DNA from: Conexivisphaerales archaeon
GTDB taxonomy: Archaea > Thermoproteota > Nitrososphaeria > Conexivisphaerales > DTJL01
NCBI GenBank assembly: GCA_049509455.1
Contig: JBEKZX010000009.1
Coordinates: forward strand, 1-45,309
Reading direction: 5' to 3'
DNA: 45,309 bases
Part shown: positions 2,096-36,202 of the stretch, one piece after another
Layout of the letters: each line of letters starts with the position of its first letter
Numbering within the stretch: position 1 is the first letter of the stretch
Program-made: the position numbers and the translations under genes
Notes under the pieces: generated by a model
The model's input: only the letters and a program-made list of their open reading frames with translations
Databases searched by the model: none
What the model was told of the DNA's origin: nothing

Positions 2096-2158
2096 ATGAA
2101 TGGTTAGAGGAAGGCGGGGATTAAACGTTTGCCCGTCCGGGCAGGCGACGGATATGTT

Positions 2159-3700
2159 CTAGTAACCGTAGAGTTCGGAGCACTTCGCGTCAAGGTAGTC
2201 GATGTAGTGCCTGACGTTGATGCCCTCCCCCGTGATCTTCTTGAGCAGGTCGAGAGGGTCGTAGAGGTTGCCGTAGGCGTAGAGGTTCTTGCTCAGCCAA
2301 TTCCTCACCGGGCTGAACTCGCCCTTCGAAATGCTCGCCCGCCACTCCGGCAGCTCGGCTTCCAGGATGTGCCTGATCTGGCCGCCGTAGATGTTGCCCA
2401 GAGCGTAGGACGGGAAGTAGCCGTAGAGGCCGCTGGCCCAGTGAGTGTCCTGCATCACTCCCTCTGAATCGTTGTCAATCTTCAGGCCAAGGTACTCTCC
2501 GTACTTCTCGTTCCACACGGTGGGAAGCTCGGCGACCGAAATCTTCCCTGCGAACAGGTCGCGCTCGATCTCGAAGCGGACGATGATGTGGAAGCCGTAT
2601 GTCACTTCGTCGGACTCGATCCTGATCTTCGACGGCTGGACGGCGTTGATGGCCTTCACGAAGGGCCCCAGCTCCACCCCTGAGAAGGCGCCGCCCGTCA
2701 TGGCCTTGAGAGTGGGCAGATAATAGGTCCAGAACTCCTTGGATCGCCCCACCATGTTCTCAACGAACCTTGACTGCGATTCGTGGAAGCCGAAGGAGCA
2801 TGCAGAACCGACCGGCTGGAACATCCAATCCCGAGGGAGGTTCTGCTCGTATGTCGCATGCCCGGCCTCGTGAAGGACAGAGAAGATGGAGGATGTGGGA
2901 AGGCCCTCGTAGTAGTGGGTGGTGATTCGGACGTCGTCGTAATAGCCGGTTGTGAAGGGATGCTCCGTCTCATCGACGCGCCCTCCCGCTCGCTTTGAAT
3001 CGACGTCATAGAGAAGGAAGTTGGACAAGGAGACGGCAATCTCCCGCTGCTCTTCGACCGGAACCCGCCGACGAAGGAGGTTCGCATCAGGCTGATCGCG
3101 CGAGGCGAGGCATTTGTCCATCACGGCCTTTATCCCCTTCCTCAGATCGCTGAACACGGGGGATATCAAAGCGGACGTCATCTTCGGCTCAAACCTGTCG
3201 ACGAGGGCGTCGTAGGCGGTCTCGGTCCGCTTGACGTCCTTCAGTATGGAAGCCGCTTCCTTCGATAGGTCGACCAGCTTCTGCAGCTCTGGCTTGAAGG
3301 CCCCGAAATCTTTAGCCGCCTTCGCCTTCTTCCAGACGTCAATCGTGAGTGCCCTCTGTCGAGCCATTTCGGTGACCAGTCGCTCGGGGAGCTTGGTCTC
3401 TTCGTCGTAACCCTTTCGAAGTAGTGTTACGTTTCTCCGCTGGACATCGGAAAGGTTCGCGAACGCGCTGTCTTTCTCGACGCCCCCCAACAGTTCGCCA
3501 ATCCTCGGGTTGATGACCATCCTGTGGGCCACCTGGCTCATCAGCGAAAGTTGCTCGCTCCTGAGACGGATGCCCCGAGGAGGCATCTTGGTTTCAAGAT
3601 CCCACTCGACAAGAGCTTGAGTTGTGGCCAGAACAATGTAGTCCTTGGAGAGGGACAGGAGCTCATCATACATTCCTTGTAGAGTGACTAGGTCGACCAA
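2159..3700 (-). CDS. Thermostable carboxypeptidase, M32 (Taq) family
   Basis: HPF, HEAGH (HExxH), HESQS, SKIRIESDE and QDTHW...GYFPSY motifs. Start uncertain: TTG 3724, TTG 3700 or ATG 3673. Confidence 0.95.
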   Translation of the reverse strand: MVDLVTLQGMYDELLSLSKDYIVLATTQALVEWDLETKMPPRGIRLRSEQLSLMSQVAHRMVINPRIGELLGGVEKDSAFANLSDVQRRNVTLLRKGYDEETKLPERLVTEMARQRALTIDVWKKAKAAKDFGAFKPELQKLVDLSKEAASILKDVKRTETAYDALVDRFEPKMTSALISPVFSDLRKGIKAVMDKCLASRDQPDANLLRRRVPVEEQREIAVSLSNFLLYDVDSKRAGGRVDETEHPFTTGYYDDVRITTHYYEGLPTSSIFSVLHEAGHATYEQNLPRDWMFQPVGSACSFGFHESQSRFVENMVGRSKEFWTYYLPTLKAMTGGAFSGVELGPFVKAINAVQPSKIRIESDEVTYGFHIIVRFEIERDLFAGKISVAELPTVWNEKYGEYLGLKIDNDSEGVMQDTHWASGLYGYFPSYALGNIYGGQIRHILEAELPEWRASISKGEFSPVRNWLSKNLYAYGNLYDPLDLLKKITGEGINVRHYIDYLDAKCSELYGY

Positions 3701-30050: not shown

Positions 30051-30620
30051 CTACTTGGTGGTCGCACCTTCCGGCGACCTGCCCACTATGCCGAAGATCG
30101 TGCTCACCATCAGGATCGCCTGCGGCGAAGGCGGCTCCAGGCTGATGATCTGGAAGCACCTCTCCTCGCCTGAAGCTTCTACCTGGGGGACCATTACGAC
30201 ATCTCCTGGCGTGACGGGGACGCCGTTGAGGGCCAATTCGATGTAGCGGCTGTCAACGGAAGGCGGCTCAGCCAACGACACGATCTCCACATAGTTGGCT
30301 GGGAGAGCCTGCACCCTCCGCAGGGTAACCGTCTCGCCCACCGACACCCGCGCGTTCTCCCTTGTTATTCGGTCCATCTTCGTTACGCCTCTATCCACCG
30401 GTTGCGGAGAGCCGCCGGCCGCGACCTGGTCAGCGTCAGTTCGTTGGTCGCCCAGCGGAAGGCACCTGGCTACAGTCCTCCTTTTCCCCAGGACCTCGAG
30501 AATGTCCCCCGGCGATGCCCCTAAGGCCTCCATCGTCTCCGCGTTCACCCTGACCACTCCTCGCCCCGCGTCCCTGTCCCAAGCCTCAAGGACCTTTAGG
30601 CTGACGCTATTGATAGCCAA
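30051..30620 (-). CDS. Stand-alone CDC48/VAT N-terminal domain protein (no AAA modules)
   Basis: LKVLEAWDRDAGRGVVRV...LGASPGDILEVLGKRRTVARC...MDRITRENARVSVGETVTL. Confidence 0.85.
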   Translation of the reverse strand: MAINSVSLKVLEAWDRDAGRGVVRVNAETMEALGASPGDILEVLGKRRTVARCLPLGDQRTDADQVAAGGSPQPVDRGVTKMDRITRENARVSVGETVTLRRVQALPANYVEIVSLAEPPSVDSRYIELALNGVPVTPGDVVMVPQVEASGEERCFQIISLEPPSPQAILMVSTIFGIVGRSPEGATTK

Positions 30621-31915: not shown

Positions 31916-32788
31916 TCATGACTCTAACACGTACCTCGCAAGCTCCGGCCTCCCCCTCGTCGACACGTACACCCCGGGAAGCCTCGCATTGCGTATCTCC
32001 TCGACGACCCGCCTCGCCTCCTTTAGGAGGCTGGCCTCGCCTCTTACTGCAACCTCCTCGAGCTTCCGTGGTATCTCCCACCCGAACCTGCTCCTGCAAG
32101 ATTCGATATCAACGAGGCTCCTGAACGGAAAGACGTTGAGGAGGACCTTCTCCCTGAGCCCTCGCAGGGCCAGGGCCTCCTCATGCTTCTTCAGCACCAC
32201 CGTCGCCTCCGAAGTCGGCGGCTGCGCCAAGAAGAAGCTCGCCCCGCTCTTGAGCCTGGACCTCGCCAGCCTGAGGCCCCTCTCTGTCGAAAGGGATGTG
32301 ATGTCCACCGGGGCGAGCAGCGACGCCTGGACGTTGGCCCTTCTGGAAAGCTGCTTGAACTCCCTGATCATCTCTCCGAGGGAGGCGAAGTCGTGGACGT
32401 TCCTCGCCTCCTCCCCAATGTACTTGTCCCCCCATGCCAAGAACACCGTGTCGAGGCCGCAGGCGAGCGCCGTGAGGAACGTATCCCTCGCCGCCACCCT
32501 GTTCACGTCCCTGGCCGTCATCGCCGGGACGGCCTCCACCCCCAGCTCCCTCTTCAGGACGGCCGCAGAGTAGATGCTAGATAGCCTAAGCCTTCCGAAG
32601 TCCATGGGGTCGGCTACGAGGAACGCATCAGCCAGCTCCTCCACCTTCCTCACCCTCGAGACGAAGTCCCTGGTCTTCTGGTCCAGCCCCAGTAGTGGCT
32701 CTCGCGTACCGTCCGCATCGAAACTCGGGGGGAGGACCTCCACGATCGTGGCGAAGACGCCCCTCGCGAGCTTCTCTCCCAGCCTCAA
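31916..32788 (-). CDS. Methylenetetrahydrofolate-reductase-like flavoprotein (MetF fold)
   Basis: IVEVLPP, TARDVN, LAWGD and FFLAQP motifs; last gene of the MetE cluster. Confidence 0.75.
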   Translation of the reverse strand: MRLGEKLARGVFATIVEVLPPSFDADGTREPLLGLDQKTRDFVSRVRKVEELADAFLVADPMDFGRLRLSSIYSAAVLKRELGVEAVPAMTARDVNRVAARDTFLTALACGLDTVFLAWGDKYIGEEARNVHDFASLGEMIREFKQLSRRANVQASLLAPVDITSLSTERGLRLARSRLKSGASFFLAQPPTSEATVVLKKHEEALALRGLREKVLLNVFPFRSLVDIESCRSRFGWEIPRKLEEVAVRGEASLLKEARRVVEEIRNARLPGVYVSTRGRPELARYVLES

Positions 32789-34036
32789 CTAGTCAATTAC
32801 CTTCTGCCTATAGCCAAGAGACGGACCCTGGAGGGAGGCCTCCGCTCTGCCCAGCTCCAAGGTGAGGTAGGCCAGGTGCCTCCTGCTTATCCCCAGCTTG
32901 TCAGCCTCTTCGTCCAGCGACTGGAAGATCCTCTCGGCGCTCCGCGACCTGAACCTCCTGAGGGGAACGTGGGAGTATGAGTAGAGGGTGACCACTATCT
33001 CGCTGCTCTCCCTCTTCACCAGGACCAGGAAGTAGCCCACCTTGTCCCGCTGCCTGGGGCCCAGGGGGGAGGGTGACGCCTCTTCGATCTGCCCTCCATA
33101 TAGATCGTCCCTGGCGAGGGTCATTTGGACGTTCTTCTGGTACGCCACCTCTCTGGGCAGGTTCCTCTGGCCGCAGTGGGGATGGACGAACTCGATCCTG
33201 TCCTCCCCCAGCTTGGCCTTGGCCAGCTGCAGCGTCCTCCCTATTTCGTCGACACCTTCGACTCTGATGTCCTGGCTGTCGTTGCACCCCAGCCCCAGGA
33301 GCTGGTCGTAGCCCCTCCCGGCCGCCTCCTCCAGGAGCCTCCTATAGTGGTAGAAGTCAAGGGAGAGCGTGCCGACCTTTAGCCTGGTCAGGAGAGGGAA
33401 GACCCGCGTGGTGTCCCCACAGGCGTGGAGCACTATGGGAAACTTGGCGACGCTGGCGACCTCTTCGTAGAGGTCTTCGATGTAGTGGGGGGTCGACGAC
33501 TCGGCGGCTATGAAGGGCGAGTCCAGCTGGATCCAAGAGACCGCGCCGGTTTGCTGGAGGTCCTCTATCTCCGGAATGACCACCTTCCTGTTGATGTCCT
33601 CTGCCAGCTCTTTCGTGTCAGGGTACGAATCGTTACTAATCTTAGCGAACCTGGCCAGCGTGTACGCGTCCGTCACTGGCTCCTTCAACTTGAACTGTGG
33701 CGGCAGGAGGCTTCTGGCGTGCCTGACGTCGCCGGCTATAGAGGAGCTCATCCTCTCCACCCTGCCGGTGACGAAGGCCTCAGCTCCCTTCCATTCTATC
33801 CCCCTCACGAACTTCGGGTCGAGGAAGAGGGAGTAGAGGTCCCCTCTCGTCTGCCCCGTGGAAGGGACCTCCACGCCGGCTGACACGAAGTCCTTCAAGG
33901 CCTCCTCCGCGGACCACAGGTAGGGGTCGACCAAGTCGTCCGCCACTCCTAGCTTCGTCATCTTCTGGTAGTACTCGACGTCATCGGTCCGAGGGAAGAC
34001 GGGGTACGAGCCGATCGTTGTGGTCTTGGGGATCAA
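32789..34036 (-). CDS. Core cobalamin-independent methionine-synthase-like protein fused to a C-terminal DUF4346-like domain
   Basis: TTTIGSYP, TGQTRGD, IQLDSP, LHACG and PHCG; last 86 aa (GYFLV...HLAYLTLELGRAEASL) match the DUF4346 pattern as recalled; TTG 34036 overlaps the upstream TGA and has an AGGAGGT SD. Confidence 0.78.
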   Translation of the reverse strand: MIPKTTTIGSYPVFPRTDDVEYYQKMTKLGVADDLVDPYLWSAEEALKDFVSAGVEVPSTGQTRGDLYSLFLDPKFVRGIEWKGAEAFVTGRVERMSSSIAGDVRHARSLLPPQFKLKEPVTDAYTLARFAKISNDSYPDTKELAEDINRKVVIPEIEDLQQTGAVSWIQLDSPFIAAESSTPHYIEDLYEEVASVAKFPIVLHACGDTTRVFPLLTRLKVGTLSLDFYHYRRLLEEAAGRGYDQLLGLGCNDSQDIRVEGVDEIGRTLQLAKAKLGEDRIEFVHPHCGQRNLPREVAYQKNVQMTLARDDLYGGQIEEASPSPLGPRQRDKVGYFLVLVKRESSEIVVTLYSYSHVPLRRFRSRSAERIFQSLDEEADKLGISRRHLAYLTLELGRAEASLQGPSLGYRQKVID

Positions 34037-35217
34037 GCGCAGACCTCCTTCCTCGCCAAGGCCGCTCCGTCCACGACCAGGTCCAAGCACTTGATGGCAA
34101 CTTCAGGGCTCCTCGTCCTCAGTCCACAGTCCGGGTTGATGTAGAGCCTTTCCGGCGGAAGCTCCGTGACCTTCGCGGAATAGAGGATCCTGTCCCTCAC
34201 CACGGCGACCTCAGGGAGGACGTCGGTATGAACATGTACCACGCCTACGCCCAGCTCACCTTCGTAGCCGTACTCCTTGAAGAGCTTGAGGTCTTTGAAC
34301 CCCTCTCTAGACTCGCCGTCGAGCCCCGTCTTGAGGGAGTCCCTGTTCGCGTATTCGAAGGAGAACCTTCGGCACTTCATCTCAAGGAGCTGCGGAAAGA
34401 GGAGGCCGTAACCGACGCTCGGCGGGAAGCAGCTGTGCACGCTGAACGTCGCCAACAGGCCCTTGGTCGTCTCGTTGAAAGCCTCCGAAACGAGCTCTAT
34501 GTCCTCCACCGTCTGGTACTGGGTCGCTGCCGGGATGTCCATCTGCACCTCCTCCGCGCCATTCTCTATCAACCCCCGGATCACCCTCCGTATCGTCTTG
34601 GCCAGCTCCAGGGTGAACTCCCGTCTCGCGCTGAAGCTCCTCTCAAGAGGAGGCATATCCTTCCTCGCCCACTTCCTTCCGTAGTAGGAGTTGTCAGACC
34701 AAGCCATAATGGTTATCGCATCCGTGACCGGGACCTTCACCCTCCTGACGGCGTGCTTCTTGGTGAACAGGAATTCGTCGAGGTGATAGTTCCCCTTGTA
34801 GGCAGGAGGGGCCCGGATGGAGGCCATCTTCCAGTACTTGTTGTCGAAGCTCCTCACACTCCCTATGAACTCGAAGCCCCCTATGCCGGAGACGGGCGTT
34901 TCGTACATCTCCGTCCTCGCCTGCTCCCCGCTCCAAACCAGGTCTAGCCCCACGCCTTCGCCGGAGCCGGCCCTCTCCTCCATCTTTATGGCGTAGAGGA
35001 GGGAAAATTCGACGAGCCTGTGCTTCTCCTCCTCCGAAAAGCCGTCCCTCTTTGAAAGGAGATTGAGGAGGTCCCCCGTCCCGGGCACTCTGAACCTCTC
35101 CCCCCAATCCCTCGCCGTCTTGACGTCGGCGTCAACCAACGGCACACCACGGAAGGGTTTCGTCCTCCACGAGAACTTGGGGAGGCTCCCTATCTCCTGA
35201 GTCGGGAAGGCCTTCAA
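34033..35217 (-). CDS. metE: Cobalamin-independent methionine synthase, catalytic (C-terminal half) subunit
   Basis: PTQEIGSLP, GEQARTEM, QMDIPA, VHSC, EYANR and INPDCGLRT, giving Zn ligands H/C/E/C. Confidence 0.88.
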   Translation of the reverse strand: MKAFPTQEIGSLPKFSWRTKPFRGVPLVDADVKTARDWGERFRVPGTGDLLNLLSKRDGFSEEEKHRLVEFSLLYAIKMEERAGSGEGVGLDLVWSGEQARTEMYETPVSGIGGFEFIGSVRSFDNKYWKMASIRAPPAYKGNYHLDEFLFTKKHAVRRVKVPVTDAITIMAWSDNSYYGRKWARKDMPPLERSFSARREFTLELAKTIRRVIRGLIENGAEEVQMDIPAATQYQTVEDIELVSEAFNETTKGLLATFSVHSCFPPSVGYGLLFPQLLEMKCRRFSFEYANRDSLKTGLDGESREGFKDLKLFKEYGYEGELGVGVVHVHTDVLPEVAVVRDRILYSAKVTELPPERLYINPDCGLRTRSPEVAIKCLDLVVDGAALARKEVCA

Positions 35218-35218
35218 T

Positions 35219-36202
35219 CTAGTCAGCCCCTCCCCTCAGCTCTTTCTTCACCCGGCCGAGCTTCCCGAGCTTCTCGTCGGCGGAGGCTCGGGGTATGTAC
35301 CTCAGGTCGCTAGACGGAGCCAATATGATCGAAGGGCTCCCGGTCTTGTCGGCGATCTCCTCCACCTCACGCCTCAGCTTACCTACATCCTCCGCCCACG
35401 TGCTGCGGGAGTCCACTATGCCGGCGATCAGGCCCTTCCCAGTCTTTGAGAGGGACGAAGGGTCAGTCTGCGTGAAGTCAAAACCGATGTCTTGGGTTGG
35501 GATGGCATCGAATATGAAAGGGAGATAGGAAGAGGCGTCCCCGAAATACGTGTGAAAGCCCGAGCGGAGAGACACGCCTCGCAGGGCCGACCGCAGCGCC
35601 TCTCCGAGCTGAATAAGGGCATCTCTGGAGATGGGCTCCTTCCGGAACCTCGCGGTTAGGTAGGGCGAGGACAGCTGCACGTAACCCACGCCGCGACCTT
35701 CAAGAAACCTCAGCTCCGTATTCAGAGCCTCGGCGTAGACGAAGAGGAGCTTATCGAAGTTACCATAATGCCTATCCTCGGCGAGCTCGCAGAACGTCAA
35801 GGGGTCTGGGACGATCACCTTGAACGGGCTGCCGCGCCTCACCAACGTCCTTTCGACGCTCCTCCACAGGGCCCTCCCTTCGCTCGTCAGGTCACCATCG
35901 ACGATCGGGACGTAGTAGAACGTGTTGGTGTTGAACCACCTGACCAGCGGCCCCTTTCGGAGACCCCCGAAACCGTCGGTGATGGGCCTAAGGAAGTCCT
36001 GCCATGGCAAGCCCATCTGGCCATCGGAGAAGTGGTCCACGCCGACCCTCTTCTGGAGCGCCAGAAGGGATTCGCAGTCCTCTCGGAAGGACTTCGCCAG
36101 CGTTCGGGAATCTACCCTCCTCCTCTCCCAGTCCTGCGTCACGCGGATGGTCGCTTCGCTCCTGGCGTGGACGCCGCTCAGCGCCAGCAGAAACTCGGTC
36201 AA
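35219..36202 (-). CDS. MetE N-terminal-half-like protein (split methionine synthase partner)
   Basis: DGQ, RWFNTNTFYYVP (compare KWFDTNYHY), GIVDSRSTW; lacks Zn ligands; GGAGTGA SD before TTG. Confidence 0.82.
   Translation of the reverse strand: MTEFLLALSGVHARSEATIRVTQDWERRRVDSRTLAKSFREDCESLLALQKRVGVDHFSDGQMGLPWQDFLRPITDGFGGLRKGPLVRWFNTNTFYYVPIVDGDLTSEGRALWRSVERTLVRRGSPFKVIVPDPLTFCELAEDRHYGNFDKLLFVYAEALNTELRFLEGRGVGYVQLSSPYLTARFRKEPISRDALIQLGEALRSALRGVSLRSGFHTYFGDASSYLPFIFDAIPTQDIGFDFTQTDPSSLSKTGKGLIAGIVDSRSTWAEDVGKLRREVEEIADKTGSPSIILAPSSDLRYIPRASADEKLGKLGRVKKELRGGAD

Follow-up and report, generated by a model that had tools for sequence, protein, structure and literature searches.

MesA of methanogens (PRK00957/NF002119; PMC7857596) is a methylcobalamin:homocysteine methyltransferase built as one MetE-type barrel of some 300 aa, and what donates the methyl group to core methionine synthases in the cell is still a matter of prediction (Price et al. 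2021, PMC7857596). The key papers on these enzymes (PMC7857596, PMC7005905) mention neither a fused form nor Thaumarchaeota. Here we describe a gene of a non-ammonia-oxidising Nitrososphaeria archaeon, carried on a 45,309-nucleotide stretch of DNA (the window, meaning the whole stretch that was analysed), in which a barrel of this type is joined to a C-terminal DUF4346 domain. An earlier note, made from the sequence alone, knew of no description of this architecture; in the literature that we searched in full text, no paper mentions DUF4346, PterinBD, PF14251, the fusion architecture or a function for the domain.

The open frame of the fusion gene spans 32789..34090 (-). Within it, we placed the start at the in-frame TTG at 34036, because this codon shares bases with the TGA stop of the gene before it (TTGA) and follows an AGGAGGT at a spacing of six bases; the product is then exactly 415 aa, in agreement with the span of 32789-34036 given in the earlier note. 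The fusion is the third gene of a four-gene cassette between 36202 and 31916, behind the genes for the MetE-N-like subunit and MetE-C and ahead of the MTHFR-like gene (Table 1). The junctions are packed stop to start (TAG-A-TTG, TTGA and TAG-TTG), which points to one operon with presumed translational coupling of all four genes. In translation, MetE-C has the canonical H-S-C, E and PDCG motifs, and the MetE-N-like subunit has H-T-Y and SSD in place of the HxC and DCG of the catalytic half. The MTHFR-like neighbour, which also gives a weak match to NCBIfam NF006396 (PRK08645), is the only PF02219 gene in this genome. Elsewhere in the window, a 189-aa ORF at 30051-30620 (-) comprises only the N-terminal domains of CDC48 (PF02359 and PF02933), without the ATPase part.

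Table 1. Features of the fusion locus and of a corrinoid module in the same genome; positions are those of the window unless a contig is named.
Feature	Position	Strand	Description	Basis
MTHFR-like gene	31916..32788	(-)	290 aa; TTG start abuts the TAG stop of the fusion	PF02219, weak but over cut-off
Fusion gene	32789..34036	(-)	415 aa; MesA-derived core methionine synthase barrel + DUF4346	ORF, SD, Pfam
DUF4346 (PterinBD) domain	32792..33046	(-)	residues 331-415 of the fusion	PF14251 over cut-off, domain model
Catalytic (beta/alpha)8 barrel	33077..34036	(-)	residues 1 to about 320 of the fusion	Foldseek, profile alignment to 1xpg
Zn ligand Cys288	33173-33175	(-)		profile alignment to T. maritima MetE
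Zn ligand Asp227	33356-33358	(-)		profile alignment to T. maritima MetE
Zn ligand Cys206	33419-33421	(-)		profile alignment to T. maritima MetE
Zn ligand His204	33425-33427	(-)		profile alignment to T. maritima MetE
MetE-C	34033..35217	(-)	394 aa; catalytic half of split MetE	PF01717 70.7 bits, PRK04326 197 bits
MetE-N-like subunit	35219..36202	(-)	327 aa; without zinc site	PF08267 Meth_synt_1, 64.8 bits
Corrinoid module	contig C24:21191-24526 (L005), ORFs 278-1243, 1465-2124, 2105-3178	(-)	in the window's genome	

The barrel was assigned by profile, alignment and predicted structure. PF01717 (Meth_synt_2) covers residues about 5-305 with an E-value of 3.5e-14 (53.3 bits against a threshold of 21). 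The AlphaFold2 model of the whole fusion, built with 43 orthologues (pLDDT 91.6, pTM 0.86), matches T. maritima MetE (1xpg) in Foldseek with an E-value of 6.9e-20 and a TM-score of 0.63 over 345 columns. A profile alignment to the same protein equates the homocysteine residues Ser10, Gln62 and Asp172 with Ser433, Glu484 and Asp599 of MetE (E. coli numbering), and the zinc residues His204/Cys206, Asp227 and Cys288 with His641/Cys643, Glu665 and Cys726. All seven are invariant among the 43 orthologues, and Asp227, a conservative variant at the Glu position, could still bind metal. Every MetE-core motif quoted in the earlier note is present and now has a place on this map of functional residues. 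The best NCBIfam match of the fusion is PRK00957, with a score of 135.7 bits that fails the curated equivalog cut-off of 258. On these sequence and model data, the fusion most likely encodes an active homocysteine S-methyltransferase that depends on zinc and belongs to the core MetE type.

For the C-terminus, PF14251 (PterinBD-DUF4346) matches residues 331-404 with 35.6 bits against a cut-off of 29.6, and a genome scan with the same profile gave 39.3 bits at 32822-33046. The domain model (pLDDT 88.9) contains three strands, two helices and a conserved tail. It superposes on predicted DUF4346 domains from five other architectures with TM-scores of 0.76-0.83 and an rmsd of 1.5-2.4 Å over 82-85 residues; the domains compared are fused to MtrA, DHPS-like Pterin_bind, ThyA and 4Fe-4S ferredoxin, and stand-alone forms were included. 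Direct alignment gave a motif common across architectures, G.F ... H.AYLG.EL.KAE.AL ... Y.QD. In helix 2 and the tail, the window's domain reads H..AYL..ELGRAE ... YRQ, sharing H..AYL..EL.(K/R)AE ... Y.Q with the DHPS-like- and MtrA-fused domains, and in its clade Arg replaces Lys and RQK replaces QD. Polar or charged residues (His, Tyr, Glu, Lys/Arg, Glu, Tyr and Gln) occupy the conserved positions. The earlier note had recognised DUF4346 here and named the lack of an HMM or structural match as the finding that would speak against it; the score above cut-off and the likeness to the other family models support the assignment. It had also named MtrA-like, DHPS-like and thymidylate-synthase proteins as partners of the domain, and all three are found among DUF4346-fused proteins. 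The other partners reported are pterin or one-carbon enzymes, and a ferredoxin (Fer4) fusion was also compared. PDB sequence searches with the whole protein, the domain and a domain profile returned no relative of the DUF4346 part, and Foldseek and VIA-align searches with the domain model gave scattered weak matches (best E 0.05, Z 6.3), mostly to ribosomal proteins. The family label PterinBD is a name only, and pterin binding by DUF4346 is a putative property.

Across the wider phylum, DUF4346 occurs in 96 of 301 genomes, nearly always at the end of open frames of roughly 500-550 aa; one such frame that we checked is DUF6513 + Pterin_bind + DUF4346. The DHPS-like forms score 75-95 bits, as against 39 bits for the window's domain. 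DUF4346 is absent from family f2 of the window's own class (43 sampled genomes). In a complete genome of the same phylum (G167), another 415-aa protein (L023:3470-4717 (+)) has a C-terminal DUF4346 as its sole Pfam match, and no family is matched by the 338 residues before it at E 0.001. Its gene adjoins those for dihydroorotate dehydrogenase and an M50 peptidase, and the protein may represent another DUF4346 architecture.

The fusion recurs widely enough to be accepted as genuine. About 100 full-length clusters (90% identity), the most distant at 42% identity, agree in length and contain both Pfam domains. Their sequences derive from NCBI, JGI, ENA and Logan assemblies, the named ones being Nitrososphaerales/Thaumarchaeota MAGs. 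An HMM search that covered all of 1.84 billion representatives found, at the 50% level, about seven clusters of full-length fused proteins, followed by unfused proteins of about 300 aa that score at or over the PRK00957 cut-off. Within the class, 4 of 201 species genomes carry the fusion. Recurrence across independent assemblies in practice rules out an assembly join or a lost stop codon, the artefacts that the earlier note had named. The broader proposal, that the fusion is either such an artefact or a decaying, non-catalytic paralogue, is extremely improbable: apart from the PRK00957 score under the curated cut-off we found nothing in its favour, and the roughly 100 independent clusters of the same architecture, the invariant catalytic and domain residues and the confident two-domain model all oppose it.

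By HMM score and tree position, the ancestry of the fusion barrel lies in the MesA (PRK00957) lineage, whose members are core methionine synthases that depend on a corrinoid. In a maximum-likelihood tree the fused barrels form one group (SH-aLRT 93) nested among unfused PRK00957-type proteins; the tree comes from a quick IQ-TREE search, was rooted at the midpoint, and suggests an order of events without proving it. Two fused lineages lie at the base of the group. The first, P0129, comes from a 'Nanoarchaeota' MAG in which it is named methionine synthase, scores 287.8 bits, thereby passing the PRK00957 cut-off, and is encoded in the order MtrA-MtrH-fusion with a convergent MTHFR gene. The second, P0130/P0279, is encoded in the order MtrH-fusion-MTHFR with overlapping stops and starts. 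Both basal lineages retain PDCG and the canonical Glu as zinc ligand. A long stem (0.91 changes per site, support 100) leads to the window's clade, whose active site is altered, with Asp for the Glu zinc ligand, DSP or DAP for DEP, and His, Gly, Ala or Val for the Asp of PDCG (PHCG in the window itself). None of the Mtr, MTHFR or MetE neighbours was found at the locus of an unfused relative, P0139. The suggested course of events is that, in the window's clade, split MetE replaced the Mtr genes of the basal operons.

The cassette itself is a recurrent unit. MetE-N-like, MetE-C, fusion and MTHFR-like genes occur together in eight contexts besides the window. Two of these are the genomes of relatives (G342 and G326, placed by coordinates), and six are contig look-ups on divergent orthologues whose flanking genes are wholly different; on one contig, the MTHFR-like gene precedes the fusion. 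Of nine genomes of the family, MetE-C, fusion and MTHFR-like genes are all present in three and all missing from the other six, among them genomes that are 99% and 93% complete, implying that the cassette was gained or lost whole.

The most constant partner of DUF4346 in this set is the MTHFR-like gene, which the earlier note did not include. It adjoins the DUF4346 gene in 12 of the 12 distinct contexts examined, one of which is a contig-edge fragment. Another of the 12 is a 961-bp JGI contig on which DUF4346 stands alone: a gene for 131 aa (L042:381-776 (+)), belonging to the same subfamily as the window's domain with 45% identity, lies directly before an MTHFR-like gene. A SpoU methylase gene lies upstream and no MetE barrel stands beside the DUF4346 gene; a single short contig is thin evidence. 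A complex prediction for the fusion with the MTHFR-like protein scored 0.00; the run had no controls and counts neither for nor against binding.

The window's genome (G000; 2.05 Mb, 95.5% complete) encodes serine hydroxymethyltransferase (SHMT). We found in it no MtrA, MtrH, Pterin_bind or MetH homocysteine domain, no FolD and no second DUF4346, bearing in mind that absence from a draft genome is not proof of absence. MtrH was likewise not found in the three other genomes of the class that have the fusion (G342, G326 and G303), and MtrA was searched for in the window's genome only. A DHPS-type Pterin_bind gene is present in G326 and G303, and was not found in the window's genome or in G342 of the same genus; both of the latter carry the MetE cassette with its MTHFR-like gene. 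The missing DHPS-type Pterin_bind and FolD suggest that folate is salvaged, that the assembly has a gap or that the carrier is unusual. Five B12-binding proteins are encoded in the window's genome, one of them methylmalonyl-CoA mutase. Another, a 219-aa corrinoid protein (B12-binding_2 + B12-binding), is flanked by two URO-D-type methyltransferases of 357 aa and 321 aa (Table 1), in a host that is not a methanogen. This corrinoid protein is found in G342 and was not found in G326, which is 95% complete and has the fusion; strict co-occurrence of the two thus did not hold, in what is a very small sample.

The explanation that we favour, while giving it somewhat less than an even chance, is that the fusion acts as a second homocysteine methyltransferase, coupled through DUF4346 to methyl-pterin made next door. 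In this scheme, SHMT would load the cell's pterin carrier with a methylene group, and the adjacent MTHFR-like enzyme would reduce methylene-pterin to methyl-pterin. DUF4346 would then either capture this product or dock onto the reductase itself, and the zinc-activated homocysteine thiolate in the barrel would take the methyl group to give methionine. We infer homocysteine as the acceptor, methyl-pterin as the donor and the role given to DUF4346. Points in favour are the invariant catalytic residues, the MesA ancestry, the active-site changes of the clade, the conservation of the cassette, the lack of detected MtrA, MtrH and MetH in the genome, the MTHFR adjacency and the pterin and one-carbon partners of DUF4346 elsewhere. 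In the window's lineage, the fusion would then work with the MTHFR-like enzyme and have no need of the MtrH/MtrA corrinoid relay still encoded beside its basal relatives. In a bolder form of the proposal, DUF4346 would serve as a small module for holding methyl-pterin or for docking onto MTHFR. The idea that it thereby allows a formerly corrinoid-dependent core synthase to use the methyl-pterin of the adjacent reductase directly, with neither a B12 relay nor a MetE N-barrel, seems to us improbable.

Several observations weigh against the favoured explanation. Characterised MesA uses methylcobalamin, not methyl-pterins (PMC7857596, PMC7005905). The methyl-pterin route is already served by the operon's canonical split MetE, which makes a second enzyme of this kind look redundant. 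MtrH-bearing basal relatives keep DUF4346 where substrate binding by the domain is unneeded, and DUF4346 exists in two control genomes without any MTHFR, those of M. jannaschii and S. acidocaldarius. Some of the same facts bear on the suggestion in the earlier note that DUF4346 could replace the folate-binding N-half of MetE, which proved too simple: a homologue of the N-half and a second, canonical catalytic half lie upstream in the same operon, and the basal fused relatives already have MtrH for methyl-pterin.

The methyl donor could also be the corrinoid module of contig C24, with its 219-aa corrinoid protein and two URO-D-type methyltransferases. On that account the fusion has stayed a corrinoid-dependent enzyme of the MesA type, fed by a methylated corrinoid protein such as this one, and DUF4346 is irrelevant to the choice of donor. 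The MesA ancestry fits, as does the Gln kept at the Glu484 position as in MesA and MesC (PMC7857596), and the genome has, besides the corrinoid module, other cobamide-dependent enzymes such as methylmalonyl-CoA mutase. We nevertheless consider a corrinoid donor unlikely, though a serious competitor, as the 219-aa protein was not found in the fusion-bearing G326, and searches of the window's genome for a methyl-pterin:corrinoid methyltransferase (MtrH or Pterin_bind) found none. If the methyl group did not come from methyl-pterin, moreover, the strict MTHFR linkage would be left unexplained. We are also doubtful that DUF4346 is a regulatory or assembly module, that is, a pterin-sensing allosteric, oligomerisation or docking domain rather than a substrate site, with the barrel acting either like any other core synthase or within a larger MetE-N/MetE-C/fusion complex. 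The occurrence of the domain on enzymes with pterin sites of their own (DHPS-like, ThyA and MtrH-linked MesA) is consistent with such a role, stand-alone DUF4346 genes exist, and the all-or-none cassette suggests that its products act together. Against this, the polar and charged conserved positions fit a ligand site as well as an interface, and the fusion is the sole DUF4346 protein in the window's genome, with no partner DUF4346 to pair with. The related idea that DUF4346 links several DUF4346 proteins in the cell was dropped because the genome has one such protein.

The fusion architecture is already visible in precomputed Pfam tables. What is new is the derived clade with an altered zinc site, in which no Mtr genes were found, together with its fixed association with split MetE and the constant link of MTHFR to DUF4346. 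The MTHFR adjacency makes the long-open question of methyl supply to core methionine synthases testable. A natural series runs from unfused MesA through MesA::DUF4346 with MtrA/MtrH and MTHFR to the window's derived clade with split MetE, and could reveal both the role of DUF4346 and the delivery of methyl groups to core methionine synthases; resolving it would also explain the presence of three MetE-fold genes in one operon. If direct use of methyl-pterin through DUF4346 were true, it would constitute a fifth way to build a methionine synthase and provide a first function for DUF4346 across its other fusions with pterin enzymes. The domain occurs on DHPS-like, ThyA, MtrA and ferredoxin proteins in archaea and bacteria.

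Compared with known systems, MesA is the nearest family by both HMM and tree, and the fusion shares its Ser/Gln/Asp homocysteine residues and HxC...C zinc site. It differs in scoring under the MesA cut-off, in having Asp for the Glu ligand and PHCG for PDCG, in the added DUF4346, and in its host, a non-methanogen of the Nitrososphaeria in which no MtrA was found. The MtrA-MtrH-MesA::DUF4346 (+MTHFR) operons of DPANN-type and other archaea (L032/L033, L035-L037) encode the same fusion with an adjacent MTHFR-like gene, and their barrels group with the window's in the tree. These operons keep Glu, PDCG and a soluble corrinoid relay, whereas the window's clade has split MetE, an altered site and no Mtr genes found. 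Archaeal split MetE (Price et al. 2021) and two-barrel MetE (T. maritima, 1xpg) share the barrel fold and, as predicted from sequence, the chemistry; unlike two-barrel MetE, the fusion has no N-barrel of its own, and its 90-aa beta3-alpha2 module is unrelated to the MetE N-half. DHPS-like::DUF4346 (DUF6513 + Pterin_bind + DUF4346, TIGR00284 type), MtrA::DUF4346 and ThyA::DUF4346 have the same C-terminal domain on another catalytic partner, and relative to the DHPS-like form the window's domain is a divergent family member. Finally, the homocysteine S-methyltransferase/MTHFR of NF006396/PRK08645 is a precedent for direct coupling of the two activities. That protein is a true fusion with a MetH-type homocysteine domain, whereas the window has adjacent genes and a methyltransferase of the MetE fold.
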